Assembly (NCBI GenBank): GCA_964016885.1
Contig: OZ024746.1
Coordinates: 48,546,001 to 48,610,000 of the forward strand
Direction: 5' to 3'
Length of the DNA stretch: 64,000 nucleotides
Source: Eledone cirrhosa
Taxonomy: Eukaryota
Shown in pieces: positions 13,272 through 60,967 of the stretch. The notes below the pieces were generated by a model. That model was not told the origin of the DNA, searched no databases, and worked only from the letters and a program-made list of their open reading frames with translations. How positions within the stretch are numbered: the first letter of the stretch is position 1; the number at the start of each line of letters is the position of its first letter. Both the position numbers and the translations under genes were made by a program.

Positions 13272-13302
<31 letters not shown>

Positions 13303-16277: not shown

Positions 16278-16293
16278 TTAATCTGTTATTTTA

Positions 16294-16357
<64 letters not shown>

Positions 16358-20208: not shown

Positions 20209-20269
<61 letters not shown>

Positions 20270-20376
20270 ACAATAATAAATTTGAAGACTAAAATCCAAA
20301 GAGGGCTAGATAAGGATAAATATATATCAAATATATAAGAACCGTAGAGCAAATATTTATTAAAATAACAGATTAA

Positions 20377-20427
20377 AGTTTAAGCAAAGAATCGCTGCTT
20401 TCACCCTTAACGGGATCTTCTGAAACT
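20377..20427 (-). ncRNA. Variant hammerhead (CAGAAGA core)
   Basis: Same motif as 13424-13474. Confidence 0.6.
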
Positions 20428-22568
20428 AACAAAATCAATCTGTAAACGCAGAAGTAAATATTTCAAAAAACGTTGCAACCGGAGGAAGATGATACTTTGG
20501 TTCGTGGAAACGTTCCCTGGCAAAGAACGGGAAAAAACGAATATAATACGTCACTATTTGGAGCGGTGAAAAACAATTACAGGCAAAGACACAACCACGT
20601 TTATGGTATAAAAGAAGTCGTAGACTAATATTCTCTTAGGTGGTTCATAGAGACGTTCTCTGGCAATGAACGAAAAAAACGAAGATAATACGTCATATGT
20701 GGCACGCAAAGACAAAACCACGTAAATGGTATAACGGAAGTCGTAGACTAAAATTCTAACTAGGAAACCGAATAATTCTCCGCTTCAGAGTTAAGAACAA
20801 AGTAAATAAAATACAGAGGTAATTGAAATTAAATAAATACATACACGCATCCAAATACGTACATACACAAGCATACGCGAAAACACTCGCCATAGGTATA
20901 CAAGTACACGCACATATAAATATGTGTGTTTGTGTGCGTGTATACAAATAATTAAATAAACGTATATAAATAAATAAATACGTATATAACAAGCGCACAC
21001 ACATACCTACATGTAAATACACAAATGTTTGGTGACGTAAGTCAACCAAAACACGAAGTACACATATACACACACCCTATACACGTACAACCCGCATACT
21101 CACACGGACGCAAAACTCACGTATACACATAACCAAAAGCATATGTACCAGAATATATAAAAATATACGCCATAACATATACAATCAAATATACGTACGA
21201 GAAAGTATACGTACCTTCACAAAACATACAGGTAATATATACTTACCTATGCAAATAAGTAATGGTATAAACATAACATATACTTAGCTACCACATCAAG
21301 ACGTAAAATATCCACGTATAGATCGTACTATCCGTTAGGGTATAATGTGGGGTTGTAATACATGAAAGTTTTGTGCAATTTATGTTTACAAGCCGAACTT
21401 GCCTCAGATTTTTTGTTTAAGATGTGGTCTGTGGCGTAGAGTATTTCTAGGGCCTCAGTGGCGCAGAGGTCACATGGTCTTTTATTTCCGTTATACGATC
21501 TAGCCCTAGCTGGGATCTCTCAGTGTAACTTATATTGGGTGTCGTTGTCTTTTAGACTCCAGATATAAGCTGAAAGTGACGTCATATTCCTTCTTAGAGG
21601 GTAATGAAAAGAATGGGTATGCATGTAAAGACGCTGCTTGAATATATTGGCGGTTAACCCTATGTAGGCCCTACGGGACGTGGGTGTTACAACCTTACAT
21701 TTGTAGACAATGTTACTAGAGAGGTATTTCCCGGATAGGGGGCAATCAACCCGATTCCTATAATTACAGTTAGTACTAACTACAGGGTTGCACGTATTCC
21801 TACGGCTAGGTAGTTTAGCTAAATTTGAAGCTGCGATGTTATGTGCAAGGCTAGGAGTCGTAGTGTAAGAAATTTTAATAGTATTTCTATTAAACATTTT
21901 ACTATATTTATGTGTAGGGGGAAATGATCGTAATAAGGGATAGAAAGATCTTAGCTAATGGTGTGGCCACCTCCATATTATATGGTGGGTTATACCAACA
22001 AATGCGTCGGGATCTATTTCTTCTAGGTCTATTTTCGTACTCTGTATATGCTACCTTATCGACAAATCCACTCCGAGCGAGAGCTTCATTGTAATATGTG
22101 GAATGGTCGTTGAAAATATGCTCGTTAGCAGATAGACGGGAAAGCCTCAACGAAACGTTTCTTACCAGGTTCTTGGTTATCCTAGCAGGATGGTTGGAAT
22201 GCTTACTTATGTAATTAAGCGTATCATTCGGCTTTCTATACGGGTAATACAAGCCTTTCGATAAATTGAGAGTAACGTCGAGGTAATTAACGACCGAGAG
22301 GTTGGCCTCAACCTGTATAGAGAGGTTGAAGCCTTTAAAGAAGGCTGTGAATTCATTTCTGAACCTGTCGCAAGCACGAGGGCCGCAATTAGTCACGGTC
22401 AAAAAACCATCATCACGGTACAAACCACCACCCACGTTGGGGAATTCGTCCTTGATAGAGAAAAGAAGGAAACGGCCGATAAGATCAGTAACCTCCGCAG
22501 AATCGCTGGCGCCCACACTCACGTCGAATGGGGTACTATTTGATTTTTTAATCCAAATTGATTTTGTT

Positions 22569-26044: not shown

Positions 26045-26248
26045 GGAACAAGACCAACAATGTTTTGAGGGGAGAGGAAAAAGTCGATAAAATTGATCTC
26101 AATGCGTTTTTGGTACTTTATTTTATCGACGCCATAAGGATGGAAGATAAAGCTAACCCCGGCGGGATTTAAACTCAGAATGGGACATAACTATATACCG
26201 CAAAGCATGTTATCTGACGCTCTATTGATACTACCAATCCACCACCCA
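26045..26248 (-). mobile_element. tRNA-derived SINE
   Basis: Matches the 19612-19802 family. Confidence 0.7.
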
Positions 26249-33030: not shown

Positions 33031-36000
33031 TTGTTGTTATTCCTTGAATCTCAGTCATTGATGTTGGTTAACTGGAAAGTCCGTTGGATTGAATATCAAG
33101 CCACTACCTGCAGCCTCAGATATTCAGGACGTATCGGAGGGTTCTTGCTGTTCCAAGCAAGCATGCCTTTTGAAGCGTTCCAAAAAGCGTGATGGGGCCG
33201 ATTTTCTTTAACCATCCCTGGAAACTTTTGGAGATAGTCCCCAGTGCGCCTATGACAATCGGGATCACTTTGACTTCATGGCAGTTCCAAATCCTTTTCA
33301 CCTCCCACTTTAGGTCCTGGTATCGGTTAATTTTCTCCCTCTCCTTCTCTTGCTCTCTCGTGTCGAACGGGCAGGCCACATCCACAATCAGACACGATCT
33401 TTTTTCTTTGTCCACAACCACCAGGTCAGGTCTATTGTGTTCCAGTTTTTTGTCCGTCTGTATCCTAAAATCACCACAGCACCTTCACCTGATTGTTCTC
33501 CATCACCGCCTCTGGCCTATGCTCATACCATTTCTCAGAATGTGGTAAATTGTTTACTTTGCACAGGTGCCAGTGGATCACCCTGCCCATCACATCGTGT
33601 CTCCAGCCCTTATAGTGGGTCTGGGCTAGGTGTTTACACTCGGACACAATGTGATCCACAGTCTCCTCTCTCTCTCCACAGATCCTGCACAGTGGGCTAG
33701 CCTCCTCCTTGTAGATATGGTGCTTCAACCACTTCGTTTTGAGGGCCTGCTCCTGCGCAGCCATTAGCATTCCTTCTGTAGCCTTTTTGAGGTCTCCTCT
33801 TCTCAACCAGTTCCATGTCTGTGGATCTCTAAATTCAGTTTTCTCAAAGAAGGTACTATGAAGGGATTTTCCCTTAAGGCTGCTCTTCCTCCTTGATGTT
33901 ATTTCCTCCTTGGACATCCCCTGGCCTACTGTCCCCTCCTTCAGTACAGTTCTGAGCATTGGCTCCTTACTATAGGTCACGTATTTGTATAGGTTGTTTT
34001 TCTCCATCTGAACACAGTCCTCTATGCTGATAAGACCTCTTCCACCCTCAGATCTCCTTAGGTAGAGTCTATCGACATCACTCCTCTTGTGGAACATGTT
34101 GTAGATAGTCAATAGCTTCCTAGTCTTCCTATCCATTTCTTTTTGTTCAGCAACATTCCATCTCAGAATTCCCGCACTGTACCTAATAATAGACACAGCT
34201 CGGGAATTTACTGCGCTTATGGCATTTCTGCTGTTCAGATGTGACTTCAATACGCTCCTTACTCTCCGAAAGTATTCAGTTCTTAACAATTCCTTCATTT
34301 TTTTGTTCTTTATGCCATCAGCCTCCAGAACGCCCAAATACTTGTATCCATCCTCAGAGTCAATTTCCTTTATCATCTCACCTGTTGGTATCTGGATCCC
34401 GTTACTTCTGCTCAACCTACCCCTCTTCATCACAATGACTCCACATTTACCAATACCAAACTGCATACATATATCACTGCTGAAAATACGGACAGTGTCA
34501 ACAAGCACATCCAACTCCTTCTCACTTTTCCCGAAGAGCTTAAGATCGTCCATGAAGAGGAGGTGATTGATGGTAAGCTCTCCCCTTCCCAACTTGTATC
34601 CTGCTCTCACTTTTCGCAGCATAATGGTCAAGGGCATCAGGGCAAGGACAAACAACAGAGGGGACAGGCTATCTCCCTGGAAGATACCTCTCTTGATCTT
34701 CACGCTTCCCAAGGATACTCCAGTTGATGTCAACTCTGTCTCCTAGGACCCCATACTCCTGCCTAACAACTGTCTGATGTTATCTGCCACCCTGAAGATC
34801 TCCAGGCTTTTGGTGATCCAGGAATGAGGCACCATGTCAAATGCCTTTCTGTAGTCTATCCATCCCATGGCAAGATCAGTGTGTCTCCTCCTGCAATTCC
34901 CCATTACCATCTTATCAATAAGTAACTGGTCCTTTGTACCACGGAACTTCTTTCGGCATCCTTTCTGTTCGTCCGGTAACAAGTTGTTTGTGTGGAGGTG
35001 ATGGTAGATTTCCTCAGACACAATGCTCGTCAACAGTTTCCACATTACGGACAGACATGTGATAGGTCTATAGTTGGTAACATCATTACCCTTGATTCGG
35101 TCTTTCATTATCAGAACTGTGGTACCTTTTGTCAACCACTCTGGCACCTCACCCGACACCAAGCAGTCATTGAACATGGCCGTCAGCTTCGGGTGGAGGG
35201 ATGTTAAATGTTTAATCCAATACCCCTGCACACCATCTGGGTCTGGTGATTTCCAGTTGGTTAGTTTTTTGGCCTGCCCCTTAAGAGTTTCAACTGTGAT
35301 ACTCAAATCAGTTTGTTGTTGTGCCTGCTCACCGATCTCCCTCTGTACTGTCTCAATCCACCCTGCCTGGGCATTGTGTCTAACATCCTGCTCCCATATT
35401 CCTCTCCAGAATGTTTTAGTTTGCTCCGCCCCAGGGATCAAGTCGTTGCCTCTTTCTTTCCCCTCAAGCTGTCCAAACAGCATCTTCTGGTTGTTGTCGA
35501 ACATGCGGTTCTGTTTATACTGACTGACTCTGTTCTCGTATCGCCTGATTTTTGCACTCTTTGCTACAATGCGTTGCTTCAGTTCCTCTATGATAATATT
35601 TAGCTTTTTCCTCCTAGTTTTGTATTTTATTTCCAGTCTATTTTTAGTGCCTATGTTTTTTAGTGTCCCATTCAGTAGTGACTCAAGCTTTCCTATGTCA
35701 TTTCTCATTTCCCCGATTTGCCCACTCAGTCGCTTCTTCCACCACGGCTCTGCTCTTTCTTGTCTGTTGTTTCCTCTCGCTTTTATACCAAGTAGTTTCC
35801 TCACCGTATTTGCTGTTGCTTTGAGGATATTGTTGCACTGGTGAAGGCTCCTCGCCTCAAGGTATGGGATGACTTTGTTTACCTTAGCTGTTGTTTCTTT
35901 TAACTTTTTCCTGTCTACAAATCTTAGGTTCATAGGTCTCCCACTATCATTGTTCAATTCATCTACCACTAAATTTAGGATGTCAACCGAATCTTGTCCT

Positions 36001-37557
36001 AGCCCGTCAGCATTCATCTCCTCAGTGGCCGTATCTCTGTTCCAGGTATTATTTATCTCAGTATTCAGATCATTGTCTGCTTCGGGTGGTTCCTCCGTTC
36101 TCAGGACCTCTTCACCTTCATTTCCCACTGGCTCGCTTGTCTGGCATACTACACCCGCCATCTCCAAGCCATTCTCTCTGCTCAGTTCCTCCAGTTCCAG
36201 CTCGCTTATCCATCCATTAGTTCTTATTACCCGAGCCTGCCCGGCCAATTTTTGTTCATCTAATTTAAATAAACCAATCTCGTTCCAGATGTTATGCATC
36301 CGTCTCCTGTAGCCCCTCTCCTTGGGGTTACTTTTCAGGTAACATTGCATAACAGTTCTATTCAATTCTTTCGTCCAGTTGGTTCTGGCTCCTTTCCTTC
36401 TTCTCCTTCCTCCAACATCAGCAGTATTTGGTTGACAGTCAGGTTCCTGCTGCTGAGCCAGGGGGCACCTGTTGGGTGAGAGTCTGTCACATGACGTTCT
36501 AGTCTCCATTTCACCGTTATTCGAACTGTTTATGTTCGATATTTAAACACTCTTATCGAGGATTGGCGAATGTATGGTTACATATCCATCTGTGGATCCG
36601 CCATTCCACTTGGCCCTTGTGTGGCATTATCACCACGCTGTATACGAACACACATAAACAAACAAACACACAGGCAGAAAGGGCCCCAAAAATGAATAAG
36701 CATAAGTTTCATTGTAATGTAGTGTTCGAATGTCTGACTTAGTTTTTGTTTTTTAAGTTTTAGTTTTTCCCCCCTCTTCTCTGTCCGTCCGCCTGCTTCT
36801 CTCTTCATTCTTATTTTCTTTACGTTTTTGGGGTTTTTTTTTTGTTTTTGTTTTTGTTTTTCTCTGTTTGTTTTTCTCGTTTTTTGCTGTTGTTGCTGTG
36901 CTGCTTTGGTTTTGTTGTTTGTTTTTTCTTTTTTCTTTTGAGTCTATCTATATATTTTGATGCCTTCCTCTTTTTTAGCAGTAGGGATTCTATAATGTGG
37001 TGGCACCAGCCAGCTGGGTGAGGTGGGAGACTGGCGGCGGTAGCGATACTGAGACAGTGGTGGTGGTGATGTCGATACCGAGGCAGTGGTGGCGGTGATG
37101 TGACCGTATTACTGTAGTGATGGTGCTGTAGCGGTGGTAGCGGTGAAGGAGTGAAGGGGTGGTGGCGGCGGTGATGGGATAATGGTTGTAATGATGGCCG
37201 TAGTGAGCGGTGGTGGTTTAGTGTACACAGGTGATGGGGTGGGTGGTGTATCTAGTTTCTGGTGTTGGTGAGTTTGGCTGTTCTATATAGTGTAGACAGA
37301 GGAGGAGGGGGGGTTCTTCTTCCATTTATAGCCATTTTCTTTTTTGGATATACAGTGTACAATACAAAGTTGAATATTTGAATATTTGAGCCTTATAACA
37401 ATATATTTTGGGTCCGAATTTTTTTGGACTCAAGTCGGGTGCTTTACGTAGCATTTGTACTAAGAGTTGTTATTTCACAAATGATTTAAATATGTTAAAA
37501 ATTCAAAACTTACGGGAGCGATTTCATGACCTCCGTCACCTCGTGCGTCTTCTTCCC
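33031..37557 (-). mobile_element. R4/Dong-like RLE non-LTR retrotransposon, family 1 copy A (full length, ~4.5 kb)
   Basis: (TAA)n on both sides; 5' leader shared with copy E. Confidence 0.92.
33116..36509 (-). pseudogene. RT-RLE polyprotein, copy A (stop at 34743, +1 frameshift near 33472)
   Basis: Myb-like WTKELN, IFQGDSLSPLLF, LFMDD, CRICG..ETV.HIVSEC, RHD and NRPD..IVDVACP..K (PD-D/ExK). Confidence 0.92.
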
Positions 37558-37660: not shown

Positions 37661-40600
37661 TGTTCTTTGAGTCTCAGTCATTGATGTTAGTTAACTGGAA
37701 AGTTTGTTGAAATGAATATCAAGCCACTACCTGCAGCCTCAGATATTCAGGACGTATCGGAGGGTTCTTGCTGTTCCCAGCAAGCATGCCTTTTGAAGCG
37801 TTCCAAAAAGCGTGAAGGGGCCAATTTTCTTTAACCATCCCTGGAAACTTTTGGAGATAGTACCTAGTGCGCCTATGACAATCGGGACCACTTTGACTTC
37901 ATGGCAGTTCCAAGTCCTTTTTACCCACCACTTTAAGTCCTGGTATCGGTTAATTTTCTCCCTCTCATTCTCTTGCACTCTCGTGTCGAATGGGCAGGCC
38001 ACATCCACAATCAGGCACGATCTTTTTTCTTTGTCCAAAACCACCAGGTCAGGTCTATTGTGTTCCAGTTTCTTGTCCGTCTGTATCCTAAAATCCCACA
38101 GCACCTTCACCTGATCGTTTTCTATCACCGACTCTGGCTTATGCTCATACCACTTCTCAGAATCTGGTAAATTGTTTACTTTGCATAGGTGCCAGTGGAT
38201 CACCCTGCCCATCACATCATGTCTCCAGCCCTTATAGTGAGTCTGGGCTAGGTGTTTACACTCGGATACAATGTGAGCCACAGTCTCCTCTGTCTCTCCA
38301 CAGATCCTGCGCAGTGGGCTAGCATCCTCCTTGTAAATATGGTGTTTCAACCACTTCGTTTTGAGGGCCTGCCTTGCGCAGCCATTAACATTCCTTCTGT
38401 AGCCTTTTTAAGGTCTCCTCTTTTCAACCAGTTCCATGTCTGTGGATCTCTGAATTCAGTTTTCTCAAAGAAGGTACTATGAAGGGATTTTTCATGAAGG
38501 CTGCTCTTTCTCCTTGTTGTTATTTCCTCCCTGTACATCCCCTGGTCTATTGTCCTCTCCTTCAGTAGAATTCTGAACATTGGCTCCTTACTATCAGTCA
38601 CGTATTTGTGTAGGTTGTTTTTCTACTTCTGAACACAGTCCTCTATGCTGATAAGACCTCTTCCACCTTCAGATCTCCTTAAGTAGAGTCTATCGACATC
38701 ACTCATCTTGTGGAACATGTTGTAGATAGTCAATAGCTTCCTAGTCTTCCTATCCATTTCTTTTTGTTCAGCAACATTCCATCTCAGAATTCCCGCACTG
38801 TACCTAATAATAGACACAGCTCGGGAATTTATTGCACTTATGGCATTCCTACTGTTCAGATGTGACTTTAATACGCTCCTTATTCTCCGAATGTATTCAG
38901 ATCTTATCAATTCCTTCATTTTTTTGTTCTTGATGTCATCAGTCTCCAGAACACCCAAATACTTGTATCCTTCTTCAGTGTCAATTTCCTTTATCATCTC
39001 ACCTGTTGGTACCTGGATTCTGTTGCTTCTGCTCAATTTACCCCTCTTCATCACAAGGATTCCACACTTACTAATACCAAATTGCATACATATATCATTG
39101 CTGAAAATACGGACAGTGTCAACAAGCACATCCAACTCCTTCTCACTCTTCCCGAAGAGCTTAAGATCGTCAATGAAGAGGAGGTGATTGATGGTAAGCT
39201 CTCCCTTTCCCAACTTGTATCCTGCTCTCACTTTTCGCAGTATAGTGGTCAGGGGCATCAGGGCAAGGACAAACAACAGAGGGGACAGACTATCTCCCTG
39301 GAAGATACCTCTCTTGATCTTCACGCCTCCCAAGGATTCTCCAGCTGATGTTAACTCTGTTTTCCAGGACTTCATACTTTTGGCCAACAACTGTCTGATG
39401 TTATCTTCCACCTTGAAGATCTCCAGGCTTTTGGTGATCCAGGAATGAGGCACCATGTCAAATGCCTTTCTGTAGTCTATCCATCCCACGGCAAGATCAG
39501 TGTGTCTCCTCCTGCAATTCCCCATTACCATCTTATCAATAAGTAACTGGTCCTTTGTACCACGGAACTTCTTTCGGCATCCTTTCTGTTCGTCCGGTAA
39601 CAAGTTGTTTGTGTGGAGGTGATGGTAGATTTCCTCAGACACAATGCTCGTCAACAGTTTCCACATTACGGACAGACATGTGATAGGTCTATAGTTGGTA
39701 ACATCATTACCGTTGATTCGGTCTTTCATTATCAGAACTGTGGTACCTTTTGTCAACCACTCTGGCACCTCACCCGACACCAAGCAGTCATTGAACATGG
39801 CTGTCAGTCTCGGGTGGAGGGATGTCAAATTTTTAATCCAATCCCCCTGCACACCATCTGGGCCTGGTGATTTCCAGTTGGTTAGTTTTCTGGCCTGCCC
39901 CTTAAGAGTTTCAACTGTGATACTCAAATCAGTTTGTTGGTGTGCCTGCTCACCGGTCTCCCTCTGTACTGTTTCAATCCACCCTGCCTGGTCATTATGT
40001 CTAACATCCTGCTCCCATATTCCTTTCCAGAATGTTTTAGTTTGTTCCGCCTCAGGGATCAAGTCGTTGCCTCTTTCTTTCCCCTCAAGCTGTCCAAACA
40101 GCATCTTCTGGTTGTTGTCGAACATGCGGTTCTGTTTATACTGACTGACTCTGTTCTCGTATCGCCTGATTTTTGCACTCTTTGCTACAATGCGTTGCTT
40201 CAGTTCCTCTATGATAATATTTAGCTTTTTCCTCCTAGTTTTGTACTTTATTTCCAGTCTATTTTTAGTGCCTATGTTTTTAGTGTCCCATTCAGTAGTG
40301 ACTCAAGCTTTCCAATGTCATTTCTCATTTCCCTGATTTGACCACTCAGTCGTTTCTTCCACCAAGGCTCTGCTCTTTCTCGTCTGTTGTTTCCTCTCGC
40401 TTTTATACCAAGTAGTTTCCTCACCGTATTTGCTGTTGCTTTGAGGATATTGTTGCACTGGTGAAGGCTCCTCGCCTCAAGGTATGGGATGACTTTGTTT
40501 ACCTTAGCTGTTGTTTCTTTTAACTTTTTCCTGTCTACAAACCTTAGGTTCATAGGTCTCCCACTATCATTGTTCAATTCATCTACCAATAAGTTTAGGA

Positions 40601-41949
40601 TATCAACCAAATCTTGTCCTAGCCCGTCAGCATTCATCTCCTCAATGGCCGTATCTTTGTTCCAGGTATTATTTATTTCAGCATTCAGATCATTGACTGC
40701 TTCGGATGGTTCCTCCGTTCTCTCAACCTCTTCACCTTCATTTCCCATTGGCTCGTTTGCCTGGCATACTCGACTCTCCATTTCTAACCTAATCTCTCTG
40801 CTCAGTTCCTCCAGTTCCAGCTCGCTTATCCACCCATTAATTCTTATTACCCGAGCCAGCCCGGCCAATTTTTTTTCATCTAATTTAAATAGACCAATCT
40901 CGTTCCAGATGTATATGCATCCGTTTCCTATAGCCTTTCTCCTTGGGGTTACTCTTCAGGTAACATTGCATAACAGTTCTATTCAATTCTTTCGTCCAGT
41001 TGGTTCTGGTCCCTTTCCTTCTTCTTCCTCCGACACCAGCAGTATTTGGTTGACAGCCAGGTCCCTGCTGCTGAGCCAGGGAGCACCTGCCGGGTGAGAG
41101 TCTGTCACATGACATTCCAGTCGCCACTTCACCGTTATTCGAACTGTTTAGGTTCGACATTTAAACACTCTTATCGAGGATTGGTGAATGTATGGTTACA
41201 TAACCACCGGTGATTTTAGTGTGGCACTATCACGCTGTAGACGAACATAAATAAACAAACAAACAAATAGGTAAAAAAACAAACAAAAAGAATAAGCATA
41301 AGTTTCATTGTAATGTAATGTTTGAATGTCTGACTTAGTTTTTTTTTCCTTCTCTGTCTGTTTGTTTTGCTTTTCATTTTTCTTTTCTTTACGTTTTTCG
41401 TTGTTGCTGTGCTGTTTTGATTTTGATTTTTGGTTTTTTGATTTTTTGACCGGGTCATCAAATCAGTCTATTTATATCTTTTGATGCCTTCCTCTTTTAG
41501 TGGGGACACTACGATGCATGTCTTAGCAGGAGGTAGTGGGAGAGAATAGCGGCGGTAGCAATAATGAGGCAGTGGTGGTGGTGATGTGATCGTAGTACTG
41601 TAGTGATGGTGTTGAACTTGAAGTAGAAAGAGAAGTTGAGGTAACTTGACTAGAGTTTTTGGCGTGGTAGTGGTGATGGTGGCGGTGGTGGTGTTGGTGG
41701 TGAAATTATTTGCCTGTCTGTCCACTTAGCCATTTAGCTATTTAGCCATTTTGCCATTTTGCTCTTTTTCGACTATAACATTTCTGATCCAAAATTAAAT
41801 ATTAAATATTGGGACCCTGTGCCGTAAAGTGATGCGTTATGGCTTGCTGAGCGTAATAAACTGTAATCTTATACTTCATTTGTAATAAGAATTATACTAT
41901 CACAGTTGTTTTAAATAAGTAAAAATCAATTGATTTTTATTGATTTTTA

Positions 41950-41950
<1 letters not shown>
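37661..41950 (-). mobile_element. R4/Dong-like family 1 copy B (diverged subfamily, several frameshifts)
   Basis: ORF pieces 37739-41160 are colinear with copy A; ATG at 41160 (MSNLNSSNNGE); related 5' leader. Confidence 0.9.
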
Positions 41951-41982
<32 letters not shown>

Positions 41983-42201
41983 GAATGCTATGGTTGACGA
42001 AGGCTCGGCTCTGTAAGGTATTGTAAATTTTGAACGCTATAACAATTGTAAATTGTTTAAAACTTTTACCAACTTGTAGACAAAAACACCTTCCTCCTCG
42101 TGAGAGGGGTCTTTCTGCCCGTTATTTGGCCCTTCGGGGTTAAATAACTGCTTATTGGGGTTTTGTGCCCAATATTTATTTTAAACAAAAAAAAAAACAA
42201 C

Positions 42202-44327
42202 ATGGCTACGAAAAATAATTTTCATAGGTCACTCCCACTCATTTCATCTTCTTCTTCCTCAATCGTCACTACAGCAGAGAGAAGATTGTCTCTCTCCCTC
42301 CCTTCTTTAAATGTGTCTCCCTCCCTCCCTTCTCTTTCGCAAGCGACGACAGAAAAGAAAAGTCTCGTGCAAAGCGTGCAAGATTTCTCCACGACGACGA
42401 CAACGACGACGAAACAGGTGTGCGGGAAATACGAAAACCCATTTCATTCGTCTGACGTCAGGAATAATAGCAGTAGCAGCCGTAATAACAACAGCAACAG
42501 TGAAAATGAAAACAACAGTAGCAGCCGCAACAGCATCAGAAGCAGCATAAACAACAACAACATTAGCAACAGCAACAGCAACAACAACAACAACCACAGC
42601 AACAGCGGCGGCGGCAGTAGTCGTAGTACCTGCAGCAACAACAAAAGTAACAGCAGCTCTGACGACAACAACAACAACAACAGCAGCAAAGAAAAACCAA
42701 TCTTGTTTGCAGGTATCGCGAAGAACCTGGAAACAATCCTCATAATAAATGAGGAATTAGAGGAAGCGAAGAAGATGGTGACAAAAACCGAACACCGAGC
42801 AATCTGCAAGGCAGCGGAAAATCTTTTCGAAACCCAACAGCACTGTACGGTCAAGTACCGTACAGTAAGTACAAAATCCCGTAGGGTGGAAAGAGCCACA
42901 GAGGCTCAAATACAAAAAGCCTTGGGGTCTGTGTGGCAGCGGAAAACACACATCACCCGAGGCAAGAAATATGCCACCGTAGACGTACTTTTTGCCACAC
43001 CCCAGGAGGCAAAGGCTCAATCTGTAGTGACCCTAAGGAGCGAGGAAATGGTGTTGGTGCCCTCCTACTGCGGGCAAAAAATTGTGAGGGTCAAACTGAA
43101 CCACGTCCCCCCCCCGGGATGGCCCCTTCTTGGCTGGCCGTGTCTGTCCTCGTCGGAATCGAGGACAAAACAACTGTACTGCAAGTACAGAAAAAAGTAA
43201 GAGAAGATTGGGTCGGCACCTCCATTGAGATGTTAATCCAAACCTACCAGGAGTGCATCGAAGCTATCCCGGATGTGATAGACTTCGATAACGGCACTCA
43301 ACTGCCCATAAGTGTTGAGGGCAAACGCCCGAAATGCTTTCGCTGTTGATCGAAGACTCACCTCAGGGCCTTCTGCAACGAGAAGACTCTGAGAAAGGAG
43401 AAAACCCCCCTCCTTCCGAAACCGGCTCCACGGCTACCAGCAACAGGACAAGCGGCAACCAGGAACGATAGGTCCGTGGCACCCATACCCACGCCACGGA
43501 AATCAAAAACAGCAGCAGCAGTGGAAGAATTAACAACAACAACAACAGCAATACCAAATGCAGCTGCAACAGAGACACCAGTGCAAACATCACCAACAAC
43601 AACAAGTGAAAGAGTGGAGCTGGTACCCCTCCCCGACCTCACAGAATCAGACATGGAGTGTGAGGTGGGAGAGGGATGGCAAAAGGTCGTAAGAAGGCAC
43701 AAACGCAGAAGCAGCGCATCGTCGCCCTTGAAAAGGGAGGAAAGAAATGAAAAAAGGGTAAAGTCTACTGCAAAGAGACTCACAGCAGCAACACCACCAA
43801 CACCATCACCACCCACACTAACACCACCATCACCACCGGCGACAACCACACCGCCAACAACAACAACACCTTCAACACCACCACCACAAGCACCAACATC
43901 GCAAACACAACAATAAAACACACACACCCAGCAAAAACGACAAGAAAATAGCAGAACCACACCCCACCCCCAGAAAAACAAATGCACGGCAATAACTACA
44001 CACAACAAGAAACTAGTGACTTACATAATTGAATACACAGACATTTCACAACACGACTACATAATACCAGCACCAATCAAAACGCCAACTAACATAAGAC
44101 TGCTAAAAATAGCACAGAAACAATACACAAACATTAAAACGAAATTCCCCAACGCAGTTGGTGATTTCAGAGACCTAGGAGGAACTATCAATCGAAGAGT
44201 ATATTCGGACATACTCATAGAAGAGCCGATGATGACCAGCCGAAGGGACGATTCAACGGTCCCTTCACCAGACGATCAAGTGAAAAGGGATGTAAAAACC
44301 ATCTCTCCTCTACGAAAAGTACGGTAA
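42202..44327 (+). pseudogene. Tx1-type ORF1 (gag-like, zinc knuckle), disrupted
   Basis: ATG at 42202; N/S- and T/P-rich tracts; CFRC*SKTHLRAFC (CX2CX4HX4C) at ~43335-43376; frameshift in a C-run near 43110. Confidence 0.75.
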
Positions 44328-44362
44328 GTGGTCTTTCCCATCTTTTCCACTCTATTTTAAAC

Positions 44363-47300
44363 ATGACCTCACTCAGAATAGGCAGCATAAATGTGCGTGG
44401 CTTGGGGTCGTCATGGAAACAGGGTCACCTGCTCAACGACCTCAGGTCACTAAACATAGATGTAGTGGCCATCAGCAAGACCAGAATCTCCGAAGCACGG
44501 GCCTTCGCACCGATCTTCGGCGGCTACGATGTGTACGCATCTCCCAGCCGTCCTGGATCGGGGGGAGGAGTTGCTGTGCTTTTTCGGAGAGGTTTGGATC
44601 TCGCCATACGGGCCATCTTCCTGAACCCAGAGGGTAAGTTGGTGGTGCTGGACGTGACCAGCGGAGACGGGCAAGCTTTCAGGCTAGTGGCCGTCTATGC
44701 CCCGACAGGAGCAGGGCGGCCTGATTTCTTCCGGCGTCTGGAGACCTTTCTTGGAACGTCCCGCTCTTTAGTGTTAGTGGGCGACTGGAACGGGATCTTA
44801 GATGCACGCTGGGACTGTGTGGGATTAGCGGATAGGAGTGGAGGGTGCAAGAGCCTCACCAACCTGCTCAGGCGTTTTGAACTGTCTGACAGGTACCGAT
44901 TGGATTTCCCTAATGTGCCAATGTGGACTTGGACAAATCGGATAGGGTCACCAGATCATATCTAGATAGAGTATTTTGTAGGGAAATAGATAGGTCTAGC
45001 ATAGGCTGTCCACAATTCAAGATAGTCAGCTACACGGACCACAAATTCGTGATCAGTTTTCTTGACTTAGATAGGCTTCATAGACGAGGACCCGGCTACT
45101 GGAAGCTAAACGCGTCCTTACCAGCGCGCAAGGCCTACAGAGACTGGATTAGCGAACTAGTTAAGCGGGCGTTGACGGAGGCCATCGTCAACAACAAGTG
45201 GTGGTATGCTCTGAAAAGAGCAATTAGAATAGAGTCAAATAGGTTTAGTAAGGCTTTTGCAATAGAGAAAAATAGAGCAGGGGGAGAATTAGTTAGAAAA
45301 TTAGACGAGGCGCTTAGCAAAGGCATCGCAACCGACGTACTTGCGGCGAAATTGGCCCTTGACCAATTCTTCAATGCAAAGCACGAAGGCTGCGTTTTGA
45401 GAGCTCGGGTGCGTCCTCTCAGACACGAGGGGACTAAAGCCGTTCAATGGGCCCGAGTAGTGGAGGCGCGTCGTGGCAACAAAGCCACGATCCGGTCTTT
45501 GGTGGAACACGACGGGCGCATGCTACTCGATCCCGGGCAAATGTGTGAAGCTTTTCAGCGACACTTCACTCAGCTGTTCGGGGGCAGCGGTGGGCCGGGT
45601 CGAGGGATGGACTTTAGTGTCTACCTCGACGGACTGCCGCGGCTCTCGGCCACTGAGGCGGAGTGTTGCGAAAAGCCGATAACAGCCGCTGAAGTACAGG
45701 AGGCAATGACTGGCTGCACAAGGAGTAAATTGCCTGGTTTGGATGATCTGCCCTATGAACTTTACGTACAGATGCCAGACTTGTTCGGTGGCCTCTTGGC
45801 GGACGTCTACTGCAACTGGCAACAGAACGGGAGAGTTCCCAGCTCTGTGTGCCGAGGAGCTGTGGCGCTGCTGAGAAAGGATCCGAACAAAGGGGATAAC
45901 ATAGATAATTTTAGGCCCATAACTCTGCTAAACACAGAGTTCAAGATTTTGGCCAAGGTGCTAGCAAAGAGGTTGGCGCTTGTCGTTGGTGGTCTGGTGG
46001 GAGAGGCGCAGACGTACGCCATTCCCGACAGATCCATCCACGACAACCTCCAACTCATGCGATACATCGTAGAGAGGGTAGCTAGGGAACCTGGCACGGG
46101 TGGGTCCTTGATCAATTTAGATCAGTTGAAAGCTTTCGATAGGGTCGACCATCGTTACCTAGCGGCAGTCCTGACGGCGGCTGGCTTTGGGCCCGTCTTC
46201 AGAGGCTGGATCGCTGCCATGCTCAGAGACATCTGCTCTGTGGTGAGAGTGAACGGTCACCTTTCGGAACCGTTCAACATCATGAGCTCGGTCCGCCAAG
46301 GATGTCCCCTCTCGTCCCTCTTGTACGTATTGACTCTCGAGCCATTAGTGCACAAACTGGAGATGTTGAGGGGCGTCCCGCGCTAACATGGATGCGGAAG
46401 AGCCGTGTCAGCATATGCGGACGATGTCACCGTAGTGGTGTCGAACGCCAAACACATCGAGGCGATCGGCACTACACTAAGAGAATACGAAGCGGTGACA
46501 GCAGCAATGATCAACCAGGAAAAGTCAGTGGGCCTGCAGCTCGGCACCTGGAGAGGCAGGTCCATGCCATCCAACAGCGTCGTCGGACGCTGGACAGACG
46601 GACCGGTTAAATTGCTAGGGGTCTGGTTCGGTCCGGACCTCCAGACGGATAAAAACTGGGACGAGGTGACGAGCAGGGTGGCTTCTCTCACCCAGAAATG
46701 GGCGGAGAGGAAGCTATCCCTGAAAGGTCGAGCGGAGGTGGCTAACGCGTGCATCGCGTCTGTCATCTGCTACCGCCTGACCGTCGTACCTTGTCCTAAG
46801 CCCCGCCTGACTGCGCTGGAGCATTTGCTCTTTCGCTTTTTGTGGAAGGGACGCGCTCCGATGGTCAGGCGGTCCATCTGTTGTCAACACCCGCTACGAG
46901 GAGGGCTGGGCATGCCGTGGCTGATGATGCGCAGACACGCGCTCAGGCTACGACATCTCCACCACTTCCTCGACGGTGATCAGGTGTGGTCGCCATTTGC
47001 TAGACACGTATTTCCCCAGCTCGTTACCTTGACGGAGCTGTAGTCCTGGGTCAAGCGAAGACCGAGAGGGAGCGCCTGGAGACTGGAATGTCTTCAGGGG
47101 CTCACAGCCCTCGACCAATCGGGCAATGTGGTCGGTGGAAACTCCACCTCTACGTTCTATAGAGGATTAGTGGAGGGGAAGAGCGACGACGTACTTGGGG
47201 AAACTCTAGGCGTCGACGAAAATCAACTAGCCAATCTCTTCGGAAGAACTTTCGGGCCGGGGCCTATGGACAACTTCCAGAAATCTCTGGCCTGGCAGTG

Positions 47301-47779
47301 CTACCGAGGAGCTTGCCAGTTCGAGATAAACTGTACAGTCATGTAGGTGCCGTCAGAAGGGCATGTCCGAGATGCGCGCAGGGCGACGAAACCGTCCTGC
47401 ACGCACTCGTCCAGTGTCCAAAAATTGCTGACTTGTGGGTTTATGTCGAACACCTGCTGTCGCGTGTTGGACGGATCCGGCTATCATCTGAGTCCATCGT
47501 GAGGATTTCCCGCCCTCTTCCTTTAGCCGGGAAGGGCAGGCAGTTTTTATCTGTCTGGTGGCCATGACGAAAGAGATAGTATGGTGGACACGTTTGAAAG
47601 GGCTGAAGACGAGCACTTACCTCTTCGGTGATGCTCTGATTGACTTTTTCAAATTTCATTTGAAAAGGAAAATCAGAGTAGAGAGGGAAGTGCTCTCTTC
47701 CCAGCATTTTGTTGAAAGATGGGTGAGAGAAGCAAGAATGGCCCGAGTGAATGGGCCTACTCTGAGTATATATCTGTAA
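44363..47779 (+). pseudogene. Tx1-type ORF2 (APE endonuclease, RT, zf-RVT), disrupted
   Basis: SINVRGL, VAVYAP, VGDWN, YLDRVF, TDHK, GPGYWKLN, FRPITLLN, KAFDRVDH, VRQGCPLS, AYADD and CPRC..ETVLHALVQC; several stops and frameshifts. Confidence 0.93.
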
Positions 47780-48041
47780 ATTAAAGGTGGAAAACTGGGA
47801 GAGGGCACTTGCCTTGGTGGTCAGGGTCATTGTGGCCTTTTACTGGGCTTTCTCCACAAATATCCCTCCGAAGTCTCCCCCCTAGTGGGGAATTTTTCAT
47901 TGTTATTTTTTGTTACATCCTCTGATTTTGTTTTTTACACGCAGAAATGCCCATTTGTATGTCCTGCACTGTCCTTAATGTCTACTTTATGTAAACCCTT
48001 GTGGTTAATAAAGAAATCATTATTATTATTATTATTATTAT

Positions 48042-51000
48042 AGTTGCATTTATCTTGCTTTATGTTCATACGAGTTATCACCAAGTCACAACCAGTGACC
48101 TCAAGAGACAACAAGGTCCGCCATGTTCAAGAAAGAACATACATATTCACACATGCATCTTTAGTGTTTAGACTTGTGATGTACTTATATTGACAGAATC
48201 TTCCTTAGTATATGGGCAGTTCCCATTAGTACTATCTTTTGTATTTCTCCTATACGCGGGATTCCTGGGATTTGCGATATGTAATCATTAGACCCCTTAG
48301 GTATCATTCCCAGAGCGCCTACAACCACTGGTATTGTTTTAGTTCTCAATTTCCACATTTTTCCAATTTCTATCTCCAGGTCCTTATACTTGCTCAATTT
48401 TTCAAATGTTTTTATAGATACATTCTTGTCTATTGGAACAGACATATCAATTAGCAGGCATACCCTCTTTTGAAAGTCCTTCAATATTATATCAGGTCTA
48501 TTTGCATCTATTTTTCGGTCTGTTTGGATGCTAAAGTTCCACAAGATTGAGATGTGATCTTTTTCAAGTATGGGAGGTGGTTGATGCTCCCACCAATTCT
48601 TTTGATGGGGCAGGTCAAAATGCTTACACATTATACAATGTATGTATTGTGTAGCTCTGTCATGCCTGTTTAGGTATTCGATTGGAGCTATAGGACTGCA
48701 CATTGAAATTATATGGTCAATGGTCTCTGGTTGTTTTTTGCATACACGGCATAATGGGCTGCACCCATTTTTTATTATGTTGGCTTGGTAATTTTTTGTT
48801 GGCAGACACTGATCTTGTGCTGATATAATCAGTCCTTCAGTCTCCGATTTCAGTCCAGAGGATGCCAACCACTGATGGGTTAAAGTTTTGTCAACATCAG
48901 GATTGTTAGCTCGCTCTGGGTATTTTCCATACAGAGGCTTTTCTTACCATTTCTTAGCCAGTTTTTGTAGCAGTTCTTTCTTTGCAGTTACTTTTACCTG
49001 CTTTGCTTTTTCTGTGTTTTCCATTTCAGCAGTAAATGGGACTTCTGAAATTTGTAGTCCATTACTGTATCTTTGTGCATCTTTTGTAATGGAATATGAT
49101 CTTTTGATGCTTTCGTGTTTCAAAACGAGTTTGATCATCCAATCATGTGATTCCCTTAGATATGTAGATAATCCAATTGTTGCAGTTTTCAACGCAATGT
49201 CTAACTGGATTAACCCACGTCCTCCTTCTTTCCTAGGGAGAGATATTCTATATATATCTGCCTTAGGGTGATGCATTCTGTGCATGGTTAAGAATTTTCG
49301 AATTTTTGTATCGAGCCTACGGATCTCTGTGCTTGACCAGTTGATGACATTGTAACTGTAGGTTACTACTGGTATGGCAAGCGTGTTTATGGCATCGATC
49401 CTATTCCTTGCATTCAATTCCGTTCTTAAGATTGCTCTTACTCTGCGGTAACATTCCTTCCTTATCCTTTCCCTCATTGTCGAGTGCTTGATTCCGTCTC
49501 CTTCACAAACACCTAGATATTTTTAAGTTTTTTCTTGATCAAGTTCTCTTATCACGTTCCCCCGATCAAGATTAATGTCTGAACTCTTCAGCAGCTTTCC
49601 TCTGGTGAACGTTGCTTTGGCGCATTTATCTAGTCCAAACTCCATTTCAATGTCATCACTGAACTGTTCCACAGTGGATAATAGCCCTTGCAATTGTTCA
49701 TCATTTTTTGCAAATAGTTTCAGGTCATCCATGTAGAACAGGTGATTAATGGTTTTGTCATAGACTTTATATCCATGTTTTGTTTCATTGAGCATTTTAC
49801 TTAATGGTATAAATGCGATGCAGAATAAAAGCGGTGATAAAGAGTCACCCTGAAAAATTCCACAATTAATATTAACTTCTCCAGCTTCCAGTGATTTTGT
49901 TTCACTATTCAAAAGGAGTGTCGTTTTCCATGTCTTCATACTGAATGACAAAAACCTCCTGACAACGGGGGATATTTTGAAAATCTCTAAACATTTTTCA
50001 ATCCAACTGTGTGGCAAACTATTGAATGCTTTCTTATAATCTATCCAAGCAATCGATAGATTTTTGTGTCTATTATGACAATCTTCCAGTATCAGTTTGT
50101 TAACCAGAAGCTGATCCTTACAGCCATATGAGCCTCGTTTACACCCTTTCTGCTCAATGGGAAATAGGTCATTTGTTATCATGTGGTCATATGTGTATTC
50201 AGTTAGGACTGATGTTAAAATTTTATACATTGTGGTCAAGCAAGTTATCGGTCTGTAATTTTGGGGATTGTTTGTCTCATCATTCTTCGGAAGCAGGAAT
50301 GTAATGCCGTTAACTAGCCATGATGGTATCTTTTCTGGCTCCTTAACTATTTCATTGTAAAGTTGGGCTAACAGCTCATGAGACTCTGTGAAGGCATTTA
50401 TCCAAAAGTTTTGTATTTTGTCTTTTCCTGGGGATTTCCATTTGCTGGTTTTTTCTTAGAGCCAAGCGCAACTGTTCAACTGTTATATTTTCCTATATTT
50501 GTTCCTCAAGGTGAGCTGTATCTTTCATTTGTCTGTCTATCCATGGGGCATGTATGTTATGAACTTTTTCTTCGGCCCAGATCTTTTCCCAGAATTCTTG
50601 CACTTCCTCCTTGGGTGGTATTGATTTAGCAGTTATTATTGACTTACCAATTTTTCTGTAGAAGTTTCTTTGGTTGTTTTTGAACATATTATTGTCCTTA
50701 TAGAATCTAGATCGTTTTTCAAAGCGCCTTATACGAGCAGCTTTGGCCGACACTTTTTGCTTGATTATTTCTATCAGCATGTCTATGTCACATGTTGATT
50801 TTATACTGTACTTTTTTTTCAATTTTGTAAGTTTAGTTTGTTTAACATGTTCACCTACTTTATAGTTTGTTAAAATTTCTATGTCAGATCGGAGAAGGTT
50901 TATTTGGCGATTGATGTTCTCTTGCCAAGTAGATTTCTTGTGGGAATTCCTTTGTTTTTTCATCTTCACTCCACATAAGTGAGTGGTGACTTTAGCCGAT

Positions 51001-52068
51001 GCATAATAGAGATGATTTAAATCAGTAATGTTTAGTTTGTTTGTGATGATAATGTTTTTGAGAATTATGTTAGTCTTGTGTATTATCTTTTGGTTCTGTT
51101 TGGAGTTCTGGATCTTAGGGAGGGTGTCTCGTTGCCCCATGTCAGATTCTTTCATTTTCATCCATTCGATCATAATTTCATCCTTCAAGTTGGCAAGTTC
51201 ATTCTCATTCATTTCTTTATCATTTACGATCTCATTATTTTCATTTGGAGTTTCATCCTGAGCATGCACTCCCTCCACTTTTTCGATCCTTTCTTTAATT
51301 TGTTCTGTTGCCAGTGATTCCGCCCCAACCCTGGGATTCGAAGTGTTACAGTTTACCTCGTTTTCACTGACACATGTTTCATTTTCCCTTCGCTGACTTT
51401 GTGCTAATAGCTTGATCTGATCAATTTCTATATCAGTTAGTAACTTTTTTCTTACAATATTTCTTCGTATATTGGCTAGTTTGTTACTGTCAATATAGCC
51501 TCTGTTTTCGGGATGTTTCTTTTTCCAGTTGATATATGTCTGTTCTGTATTCGATGTATTTGATGGGTAGTACATGGCAGTGTAGAAAGCCTCAAGGACT
51601 TCTTTATTATCTTCCCTTGACCATTTTTCTCTCTTTTTCTTTGGATTTCTTGGTGGTGAGCATGGAGGGCCAACAGTAGGAGTATTCCGGTTATGGGAGC
51701 TCCGAAGTGATGGGAAGGTTTGAACCATTAGCTGATTTTTCGACCCCAGTCTGGTTCTTCTCTGAGGGACGCGGCCCCTTTTTACCCGGGTGACGGCCGA
51801 TCAGGTATGAGATTTTATCATTAGACATTTACTTTATTTTGTCGCGTTTTATCCTTATCCGCCAAGGGGTAATCATTTCGTGTTACCACTTCTAGAACGA
51901 GTGTCAACCAAGACTAGAGGGGTCGTTCTCCCCTAGAGACACGGCTATTCCCCGCCGGCCGCCATCCCGGTATTTCTTGGTCACGGGTTTTCTTTTTGTT
52001 GTTTTTTTAAAATTGTTATTATCATGAGTGGTTCCTTAATGTGAGCATTGCGTGGCTTAAGAATGAAA
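48042..52068 (-). mobile_element. R4/Dong-like RLE retrotransposon, family 2 (copy D, probably full length, frameshifted)
   Basis: ORF pieces 48185-51728 contain WSREDNKEV, IFQGDSLSP, FYMDD, CRVCK..ETIDHIISMC, RHD and NRPDI..IDMSVP; (TAA)n on both sides. Confidence 0.9.
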
Positions 52069-52077: not shown

Positions 52078-55000
52078 TTGTTGTTATTCCTTGAATCTCA
52101 GTCATTGATGTTGGTTAACTGGAAAGTCCGTTGGATTGAATATCAAGCCACTACCTGCAGCCTCAGATATTCAGGACGTATCGGAGGGTTCTTGCTGTTC
52201 CAAGAAAGCATGCCTTTTGAAGCGTTCCAAAAAGCGTGAAGGGGCCGATTTTCTTTAACCATCCCTGGAAACTTTTGGAGATAGTCCCCAGTGCGCCTAT
52301 GACAATCGGGATCACTTTGACTTCATGGCAGTTCCAGATCCTTTTCACCTCCCACTTTAGGTCCTGGTATCGGTTAATTTTCTCCCTCTCCTTCTCTTGC
52401 ACTCTCGTGTCGAACGGGCAGGCCACATCCACAATCAGACACGATCTTGTTTCTTTGTCCACAACCACCAGGTCAGGTCTATTGTGTTCCAGTTTTTTGT
52501 CCGTCTGTATCCTAAAATCCCACAGCACCTTCACCTGATTGTTCTCCATCACCGCCTCTGGCCTATGCTCATACCATTTCACAGAATGTGGTAAATTGTT
52601 TACTTTGCACAGGTGCCAGTGGATCACCCTGCCCATCACATCGTGTCTCCAGCCCTTATAGTGGGTCTGGGCTAGGTGTTTACACTCGGACACAATGTGA
52701 GCCACAGTCTCCTCTCTCTCTCCACAGATCCTGCACAGTGGGCTAGCCTCCTCCTTGTAGATATGGTGCTTCAACCACTTCGTTTTGAGGGCCTGCTCCT
52801 GCGCAGCCATTAGCATTCCTTCTGTAGCCTTTTTGAGGTCTCCTCTTCTCAACCAGTTCCATGTCTGTGGATCTCTAAATTCAGTTTTCTCAAAGAAGGT
52901 ACTATGAAGGGATTTTCCCTTAAGGCTGCTCTTCCTCCTTGATGTTATTTCCTCCTTGGACATCCCCTGGCCTACTGTCCCCTCCTTCAGTACAGCTCTG
53001 AGCATTGGCTCCTTACTATAGGTCACGTGTTTGTATAGGTTGTTTTTCTCCATCTGAACACAGTCCTCTATGCTGATAAGACCTCTTCCACCCTCAGATC
53101 TCCTTAGGTAGAATCTATCGACATCACTCCTCTTGTGGAACATGTTGTAGATAGTCAATAGCTTCCTAGTCTTCCTATCCATTTCTTTTTGTTCAGCAAC
53201 ATTCCATCTCAGAATTCCCGCACTGTACCTAATAATAGACACAGCTCGGGAATTTACTGCGCTTATGGCATTTCTGCTGTTCAGATGTGACTTCAATACG
53301 CTCCTTACTCTCCGAATGTATTCAGTTCTTAACAATTCCTTCATTTTTTTGTTCTTTATGCCATCAGCCTCCAGAACGCCCAAATACTTGTATCCTTCCT
53401 CAGAGTCAATTTCCTTTATCATCTCACCTGTTGGTATCTGGATCCCGTTACTTCTGCTCAACCTACCCTTCTTCATCACAATGACTCCACATTTACCAAT
53501 ACCAAACTGCATACATATATCACTGCTGAAAATACGGACAGTGTCAACAAGCACATCCAACTCCTTCTCACTTTTCCCGAAGAGCTTAAGATCGTCCATG
53601 AAGAGGAGGTGATTGATGGTAAGCTCTCCCCTTCCCAACTTGTATCCTGCTCTCACTTTTCGCAGCATAATGGTCAAGGGCATCAGGGCAAGGACAAACA
53701 ACAGAGGGGACAGGCTATCTCCCTGGAAGATACCTCTCTTGATCTTCACGCTTCCCAAGGATACTCCAGTTGATGTCAACTCTGTCTCCCAGGACCCCAT
53801 ACTCCTGCCTAGCAACTGTCTGATGTTATCTGCCACCTTGAAGATCTCCAGGCTTTTGGTGATCCAGGAATGGGGCACCATGTCAAATGCCTTTCTGTAG
53901 TCTATCCATCCCATGGCAAGATCAGTGTGTCTCCTCCTGCAATTCCCCATTACCATCTTATCAATAAGTAACTGGTCCTTTGTACCACGTGACTTCTTTC
54001 GGCATCCTTTCTGTTCGTCCGGTAACAAGTTGTTTGTGTGGAGGTGATGGTAGATTTCCTCAGACACAATGCTCGTCAACAGTTTCCACATTACGGACAG
54101 ACATGTGATAGGTCTATAGTTGGTAACATCATTACCCTTGATTCGGTCTTTCATTATCAGAACTGTGGTACCTTTTGTCAACCACTCTGGCACCTCACCC
54201 GACACCAAGCAGTCATTGAACATGGACGTCAGCTTCGGGTGGAGGGATGTTAAATGTTTAATCCAATACCCCTGCACACCATCTGGGCCTGGTGATTTCC
54301 AGTTGGTTAGTTTTTTGGCCTGCCCCTTAAGAGTTTCAACTGTGATACTTAACTCAGTTTGTTGTTGTGCCTGCTCACCGATCTCCCTCTGTACTGTCTC
54401 AATCCACCCTGCCTGGGCATTGTGTCTAACATCCTGCTCCCATATTCCTCTCCAGAATGTTTTAGTTTGCTCCGCCCCAGGGATCAAGTCGTTGCCTCTT
54501 TCTTTCCCCTCAAGCTGTCCAAACAGCATCTTCTGGTTGTTGTCGAACATGCGGTTCTGTTTATACTGACTGACTCTGTTCTCGTATCGCCTGATTTTTG
54601 CACTCTTTGCTACAATGCGTTGCTTCAGTTCCTCTATGATAATATTTAGCTTTTTACTCCTAGTTTTGTATTTTATTTCCAGTCTATTTTTAGTGCCTAT
54701 GTTTTTTAGTGTCCCATTCAGTAGTGACTCAAGCTTTCCTATGTCATTTCTCATTTCCCCGATTTGCCCACTCAGTCGCTTCTTCCACCACGGCTCTGCT
54801 CTTTCTTGTCTGTTGTTTCCTCTCGCTTTTATACCAAGTAGTTTCCTCACCGTATTTGCTGTTGCTTTGAGGATATTGTTGCACTGGTGAAGGCTCCTCG
54901 CCTCAAGGTATGGGATGACTTTGTTTACCTTAGCTGTTGTTTCTTTTAACTTTTTCCTGTCTACAAATCTTAGGTTCATAGGTCTCCCACTATCATTGTT

Positions 55001-60900: not shown

Positions 60901-60967
<67 letters not shown>

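Follow-up and report, generated by a model that had tools for sequence, protein, structure and literature searches.

The RLE elements R2, R4 and Dong rely on host read-through and on a self-cleaving ribozyme at their 5' end. As set out in PMC3774820, the RNA of Dong from Bombyx mori and of R4 from Ascaris self-cleaves at its 5' end by an HDV-like ribozyme. The target list of PMC3812793 gives Dong as a TAA-targeting element, and TAA/ATT is not among the Tx1 targets listed there. For mouse L1, 11 replacements of the 5'UTR are described, and template switching is among the routes proposed for them (PMC3600994). Dong-R4 and L1-Tx1 elements are described as abundant and recently active in Octopus genomes (PMC13282606, PMC8967140, PMC9115989). 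Our literature search, which had Repbase, Dfam and subscription papers outside its scope, retrieved no description of a 5' chimera between an RLE and an APE element; consensus libraries may already contain the leader described here.

In the window, by which we mean the whole stretch of 64,000 nucleotides that was analysed, the region of 33.0-60.9 kb is a cluster of nested elements within TAA/ATT tracts of a 3.0-Gb host genome. Judging from the sequences, we consider it fairly probable that two Dong/R4-like families share a head of ~225 nt which is likely derived from the 5'UTR of a co-resident Tx1 element, which likely acts as an internal Pol II promoter, and whose splice site has been used in some copies. 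The cluster contains five pieces of family 1, which is Dong/R4-like, all on the minus strand (copies A, B, C and E plus a 3' fragment), a single copy of another Dong/R4-like family (family 2, copy D), and one Tx1-type element on the plus strand (41983-48015) that is positioned head-to-head with copy B. The leaders of copies A, B and E are located about where the original prediction had placed them, and A and E do share their start base. The features, as read from the sequence, are the following:

33043-36542, minus strand: copy A, ORF and 3'UTR of family 1, ending in (TAA)n; single ORF with RT, CCHC and PD-(D/E)xK motifs, interrupted here
36543-37557, minus strand: leader of copy A
36543-37329, minus strand: body of leader A; ACC/ACA- and A-rich sequence of low complexity is followed by ~200 nt that are conserved among the subfamilies
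37330-37557, minus strand: head of copy A, ~225-nt Tx1-like 5'UTR and likely internal promoter, from similarity tests and a constant 5' end after (TAA)n
37339-37513, minus strand: predicted 175-nt GT-AG intron of the head; the equivalent intron is precisely absent in copies L357 and L363
37508-37521, minus strand: 14-nt motif with 5' splice site (GT at 37513), also in Tx1 families T3 and T7, and over 12 nt in T8 and T9
37665-41160, minus strand: copy B, frameshifted ORF and 3'UTR of family 1
41161-41929, minus strand: leader of copy B, of the B subfamily; about 52 nt are missing at the 5' end, and the donor motif is absent
41983-42207, plus strand: 5'UTR of the T1-family Tx1 element, facing copy B head-to-head on the other side of an (ATT)n tract
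42202-44327, plus strand: Tx1 ORF1, frameshifted here; 704 aa and intact in L096, with a CCHC knuckle
44363-48015, plus strand: Tx1 ORF2, interrupted here, with APE endonuclease, RT and zf-RVT, and a 3'UTR that ends in (ATT)n
48040-52067, minus strand: copy D of Dong/R4-like family 2, its 5' part cut off at an internal AAT tract
52090-55408, minus strand: copy C, family 1, 5'-truncated within the ORF
55437-58933, minus strand: copy E, interrupted ORF and 3'UTR of family 1
58934-60283, minus strand: leader of copy E, which belongs to the A subfamily; 330 nt are internally duplicated (59470-59804/59796-60124)
60342-60901, minus strand: 3' fragment of family 1

The R4/Dong and Tx1 labels used here were assigned by structure and target. 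Firstly, copy L101 has an uninterrupted frame of 1141 codons that matches RVT_1 and has no Exo_endo_phos match. It encodes a CCHC-type knuckle and an RPD..D nuclease motif, according to what we take to be the definitions of these motifs for R4/Dong elements, and its best solved relatives are R2 proteins. (TAA)n is present upstream of the A-type loci considered below, and TAA tails are present in the window. The 120 homologues listed for the Dong ORF are all unnamed or 'uncharacterized', and no N-terminally fused ORF1 was seen among them, as judged by length only (627-1997). Secondly, intact copies of the Tx1 family T1 possess the separate 704-aa ORF1 with its knuckle and an ORF2 with APE, RT and zf domains, and ATT repeats are found upstream of nearly all T1, T2 and T3 loci. 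For residues 160-420 of the Tx1 ORF1, no protein relatives were found at E<=0.001.

Several other repeats and rearrangements were observed in the window. Short inverted duplications are present at 41875-41985, at the truncated 5' end of copy B, and at 60465-60514, within the 3' fragment. At 41730-41770 (minus strand), the end of the head of the B leader has four copies of an 8-nt A-rich ATGG unit, which we take to be a YY1-like core. A Penelope-like element is present as two copies that are 91% identical (13259-15641 and 20212-22561) and as a fragment (16019-16356); its minus-strand frame of 467 codons has no Pfam match, and it presumably carries RT-like and GIY-YIG-like motifs. An abundant short interspersed repeat that ends in (ATT)n is located at 10691-10860, 19612-19775 and 26091-26183; the family-2 leader contains its 3' tip as a fixed part, and in L343 and L351 the antisense strand of the repeat is the apparent splice acceptor.

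Linkage of the leader to the ORF across the genome

The leader of family 1 has a length of 0.9-1.5 kb and is a constant part of this Dong/R4-like family. Searching with the A-type 5' end gave 1210 candidates at first look, and all 30 fetched loci, one of which is the window itself, share the start base, continue to the ORF and have (TAA)n directly upstream; two of them are rearranged. B-type leaders continue into the ORF at 29 of 30 loci. The 17-nt pattern for the ORF start of family 1 has 2904 genomic matches, and the leader is present upstream of 29 of the first 30; 13 of these loci extend to the 5' end, and the others are truncated at scattered places. The 14-nt head motif has 2198 exact genomic matches, against eight for the control. 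Among its first 30 loci, 19 lead to a family-1 ORF, eight to family 2 and one to a Tx1 element, the other two being a duplicated and a truncated leader. Because of this linkage, and because of where the loci with the head motif lead, the leader is not an independent element, and the proposal that the module travels with the element stands. Contigs of organism B span the head, the body and the leader-ORF junction at mostly 90-95%; a run of organism C, near-identical and of low depth, was left out.

Two observations concern the region around the start of the ORF. The truncation points of two of 30 family-1 copies (L270 and L273) differ by at most one base and lie ~195 nt before the ORF, where the block that is best conserved between subfamilies begins; this may have been an older 5' end. 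At 36531-36542 (minus strand), the position at which the main ORF of B- and C-type copies has its first ATG reads ATA in A-type copies, and the next ATG follows 11 codons on.

Based on copy D, the original prediction held that family 2 lacks the leader, and this did not withstand the genomic comparison. The start pattern of copy D matches at 1120 places in the genome, and the leader with its head lies upstream of 29 of the first 30; copy D itself is merely 5'-truncated, being cut at the internal AAT tract. In family 1, with its subfamilies A, B and C, as well as in family 2, the fixed 5' end is formed by the head, which directly follows the (TAA)n target. Most family-2 leaders contain the 3' tip of a SINE, and a few are without it. 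The family-2 leader is 86% identical to the C-type leader of family 1 over ~700 nt, and 81% identical to that of A over 390 nt, whereas the ORFs of families 1 and 2 are only 40% and 26% identical in an alignment that spans the whole ORF. Leaders that are so much more alike than the ORFs that follow them would mean that the leader moved between two distant RLE families. The C-type leader is a mosaic, in which an A-like head and body are followed by a B-like leader from position ~180, and we infer that the subfamilies keep recombining the leader.

Older, more diverged Dong/R4-like families are also present in the genome (L281-L312, L148, L149, L191, L064 and L051); in one of them, family 3, the sequence upstream of the ORF includes a GGT/GAT-rich stretch. 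In an older Dong family, ~250 nt upstream of the ORF are common to three of the eight longest copies, and the head is absent within this ~250 nt, no copy of this family being known to be of full length.

The head, the leader body and the Tx1 elements

Beyond T1, the family present in the window, we found eight Tx1 5'UTRs (T2-T9) of 204-225 nt each, every one of which follows (ATT)n and leads into an ORF1; T4, T5, T6 and T9 are represented by one copy each (L334 in the case of T9), and T7-T9 were found by means of a motif taken from the Dong head. T1 and T2 are 98.8% identical at the start of ORF2, 49% in the ORF1 core and ~45% in the 5'UTR, and the Tx1 families here recruit and swap 5'UTRs, as L1 families do. 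The ORF1 cores of T2-T5 and T7-T9 are homologous; an ORF2 was not seen for T6, T7 and T9. As an observation on its own, at least nine Tx1 5'UTR types mix 5'UTR, ORF1 and ORF2 modules (L031-L060, L111-L170, L313-L342, L392-L397), such that the T8 5'UTR is found on a T3-like ORF1, and T5 and T7 have a T3-like 5'UTR on a different ORF1.

The likeness of the leader to Tx1 elements is limited to its first ~225 nt, i.e. the head. Over its whole length, the head can be aligned with 5'UTRs of several Tx1 families of the same genome, with the best scores for T9, T2, T3 and T5 (z 5-10), and the match is colinear from near their first base up to the ATG of ORF1. Identity to the best families is 58-65% in pairwise and 40-62% in multiple alignments; in most multiple alignments head-Tx1 identity is 38-55%, 62% at best, which is a twilight level in sequence of 33% GC. 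Local alignments of consensuses gave z values of 8.1 for A-T3, 7.0 for B-T2 and 6.7 for B-T3, each reached by 0 of 2000 shuffles, and pairs of Tx1 5'UTRs score between 1.5 and 8.8, a range that includes the Dong-Tx1 scores. The heads of A, B and C each outscore all 3000 GC-matched genomic windows for T3 and T5. In global alignments from which the A-run and the ATG had been removed, A and B gave z 4.6-6.7 with T2, T3 and T5, above all 173 ATG-anchored genomic windows. The closest family is T9, with a global z of 7.1-9.7, and of 6.1-7.9 (0 of 300 shuffles) in near-ungapped alignments with the search motif removed; 133 of 208 aligned bases match between B and T9, and in one of three multiple alignments B is 62% identical to T9 and 65% to A. 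A profile built from the nine Tx1 5'UTRs, without any Dong sequence, detected the heads of E and A at E 3.9e-6 and 5.5e-5, the next best match having an E of 2.7. Without the donor motif, the matches of this profile are at E 0.084-8.7, and four of the five non-self matches are still leader heads, none being on the reversed window. A five-family Tx1 profile gave only E 0.7-1.3 with the heads.

The original prediction had lined up six blocks of the leaders, in order, with the Tx1 element of the window itself. All six are present as letters, but blocks 4-6 are not significant, with blocks 5 and 6 reaching z 0.5-3.1 in hand-picked windows. Local alignment of the head with the T1 5'UTR, which rests on blocks 1 and 3, has a z of 3.4-4.0 for window copies A and E and of 5.0 (1 of 2000 shuffles) for consensuses. 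Without the A-run and ATG, the global z is 2.1-2.6, and a profile of Dong heads has no match in the T1 5'UTR at E<=10. BLASTN and TBLASTX returned low-complexity matches only.

The proposed homology of the leader to a Tx1 5'UTR plus ORF1 is thus retained for the head, which is most similar to Tx1 families other than T1, and is lost for the ORF1 part. A protein profile of the ORF1 C-terminus from four Tx1 families gave E>=1.5 with all 24 leader frames, and the top score of the DNA profile of the leader body falls on the reversed control. Among 48 pairwise scores with the ORF1 tail, that of A with T1 stands out (z 5.3), in P/T- and Q/K-rich sequence. The leaders contain 8-20 upstream ATGs, no ATG-initiated ORF above 100 codons, and no Pfam match. 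A two-ORF chimera, in which the leader encodes or descends from ORF1, was rejected on the grounds of the missing ORF of >100 codons, the negative profiles and the lack of a Pfam match. In its full form, the prediction takes the leader to be an internally deleted 5'UTR and ORF1 copy of the window's own Tx1 family. Peptides of the SP.K.EGI.R and DI....Y types do occur in order and in one frame in the consensuses of A and B, and L004 is a Tx1 copy with an internal deletion of this kind; given the outcome of both profiles, and with T1 being among the weakest matches of the head, we regard this form as very improbable.

Based on the comparisons of the head, it is highly probable that the Dong head and the Tx1 5'UTRs share descent. 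Alternatively, the 5' ends of Dong and Tx1 elements may have separately evolved the same promoter-proximal signals in AT-rich sequence, namely a 5' splice site, a GGCCCAA-like block and an A-rich start context. Such convergence would be in line with the concentration of most of the score in two or three short blocks, with the drop of z to 0.4-3 for T1, T7 and T8 when the donor motif is removed, with an identity of about 50% in multiple alignments, and with genomic null windows that reach scores of 190-209 against observed scores of 200-270. It does not readily account for the near-ungapped colinearity with T9 after motif removal (z 6-8), for the equal length up to an ATG that opens no ORF in Dong, where the head of copy A ends in an A-run and an ATG that opens a short uORF only, or for the lack of such a match in the ORF-proximal 240 nt of family 2 (z<=1 against Tx1 5'UTRs) and in the 5' regions of family 3. 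We therefore hold convergence to be rather unlikely.

If descent is shared, the direction has to be considered. The Dong heads form one clade in the trees, which are unrooted; with midpoint rooting and no outgroup, they nest among the Tx1 heads in two of three alignments with 12 heads, and in one of three with nine heads. Dong heads are 65-85% alike, and Tx1 5'UTRs, each of which leads into an ORF1, are far more diverse. A transfer from Tx1 to Dong is favoured, as we infer from the greater diversity of the Tx1 heads and from an ATG that is functional in Tx1 and vestigial in Dong. The head could also have arisen in Dong, in a host gene or in another repeat, and then have been given to Tx1 or to both. 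The single Dong clade in unrooted trees would agree with this, and since Tx1 families swap 5'UTRs, as seen for T1 and T2, 5'UTR diversity does not track element age. However, the nine diverse Tx1 5'UTRs share one layout and use the ATG for ORF1, and the known 5' ends of the R4 clade, as far as they are covered in PMC3774820, are ribozymes, so that another direction or a third source seems quite unlikely to us.

The splice site of the head

The shared head motif ends in a consensus 5' splice donor, at ~+45. A pattern for heads without GT at the donor has 44 genomic matches (two for the control), all of which were read: 19 are point mutants, 18 are unrelated sequences, and in seven copies the joint falls exactly on the donor. 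Junctions with T as their second base escape this pattern. In two of the seven, L357 and L363, the GT-AG interval is precisely missing, without microhomology and from different source variants, so that these copies are independent; the missing interval stops four bases short of the ATG triplet with which the A-run of the head ends, and L363 is a full-length family-2 element. In L343 and L351 the donor is joined to an antisense SINE whose variants offer an AG, and in L353, L354 and L376 it is joined to non-canonical acceptors. Since an interruption at any point of the following 150 nt occurs in only one of 77 unselected heads, the pile-up of joints at one base is not background. The precise loss of the GT-AG intron from genomic copies shows that element RNA went through the spliceosome before it was reverse transcribed. 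The seven donor-joined copies point to transcripts processed by the spliceosome; they do not locate the start of transcription. With respect to Tx1, the T8 consensus has the donor and the same AG-A-run-ATG context as the head, the acceptor AG is not conserved in T1, T2 and T3, and no spliced Tx1 copy was seen among the loci examined or among the joints listed for a T7 copy.

We also considered a long intron that would run from the donor of the head to an acceptor ~100 nt upstream of the ORF, and rejected it, its junction having no genomic match. Two further observations were made at this site. All four leader consensuses keep a uORF of five codons, the stop of which overlaps the splice donor (37513-37527, minus strand, in the window, with equivalents in the B, C and family-2 heads). 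L387 (G000:C2:146869600-146879599) contains a full A-type element that interrupts a spliced family-2 leader, and after it comes a second, full-length family-2 element with the same junction.

Splicing indicates processing of the Pol II type only, and it is conceivable that the head, although derived from Tx1, is a passive passenger, its RNA being produced by host read-through and its 5' end being fixed by processing or by pairing with (TAA)n. The first ~15 nt of the leader, which are purine-rich, Dong-specific and flanked by GAA/TAA runs, would be compatible with such a scenario. On the other hand, the 5' end is sharp and common to three subfamilies and two families, and the presence of the head in 29 of 30 family-2 copies suggests that carriers out-replicated non-carriers. 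Moreover, the ribozyme searches were negative, in searches of limited power: no Rfam match below E 0.1 was obtained in 32500-61500, and a ribozyme descriptor, used without a positive control, found none in six regions; folding z stays above -1.6. We regard a passive head as unlikely and favour one that acts as a promoter.

Possible origin of the leader and comparison with known systems

According to the original prediction, an RLE element captured the leader of an APE-type element that shares its microsatellite target. The shared target holds, but Dong and Tx1 elements are inserted in opposite orientation: wherever a Tx1 element is the upstream neighbour of a Dong 5' end, it is antiparallel (72 of 72 cases), and of the 104 Dong neighbours, 100 are parallel. 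Because ordinary co-insertion leaves Tx1 and Dong head-to-head, simple co-insertion cannot explain the capture. As to the capture itself, the evidence argues for a Tx1-type 5'UTR as its source, while T1, the family of the window, matches weakly (z 2-5). The capture may have been one rare event, either a template switch or an insertion into an internal AAT tract of a Tx1 copy, and the captured leader would retain no ORF1. Thereafter, the leader would have passed between families 1 and 2. Transcription would start at +1 of the head, which would replace the host read-through and the self-cleaving ribozyme of B. mori Dong and Ascaris R4. Compared with the original prediction, our analysis goes further in the leader of family 2 and in splicing, and falls short of it in that there is no ORF1.

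In a broader view, which we find about as easy to doubt as to accept, microsatellite clusters would be places where 5' modules are traded between the two sides of the deepest split among non-LTR elements, and where an RLE element swapped ribozyme release for a Tx1 promoter and passed it to an RLE family that is 40% identical to it, both families now having >1000 copies and being promoter-driven and splice-competent. If this is true, a borrowed internal promoter lets an RLE element spread through scattered microsatellites without a transcribed host repeat, and the recruitment of 5'UTRs in the manner of L1 extends across clades. It would also yield a short candidate promoter, with about 2200 exact copies of its motif, and a natural case of a promoter-proximal splice site that is kept in a retroelement.

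The families described here resemble Dong of Bombyx mori, DongAg, DongBg and R4 of Ascaris, as far as these are characterized in the sources cited, in their single RT ORF, CCHC knuckle, PD-(D/E)xK motif and insertion in (TAA)n. They differ in that B. mori Dong and R4 are released by a 5' ribozyme, whereas families 1 and 2 have a leader of 0.9-1.5 kb (in family 1) with a Tx1-like head that is spliced in some copies. Kibi and Koshi, which are Tx1 elements that target microsatellites, are likewise two-ORF APE elements inserted in microsatellites; their listed targets are TC and TTC repeats (PMC3812793), whereas the Tx1 families here follow (ATT)n and lie antiparallel to Dong in the same tracts. 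The repeat complement of Octopus is probably similar to that of this genome, and no shared 5' end is described in the Octopus reports cited above. Mammalian L1 elements, in the account cited above, also acquire new 5' ends and swap them between families. However, the L1 swaps take place within one clade, whereas the 5' end described here was likely donated by an APE element to RLE elements.
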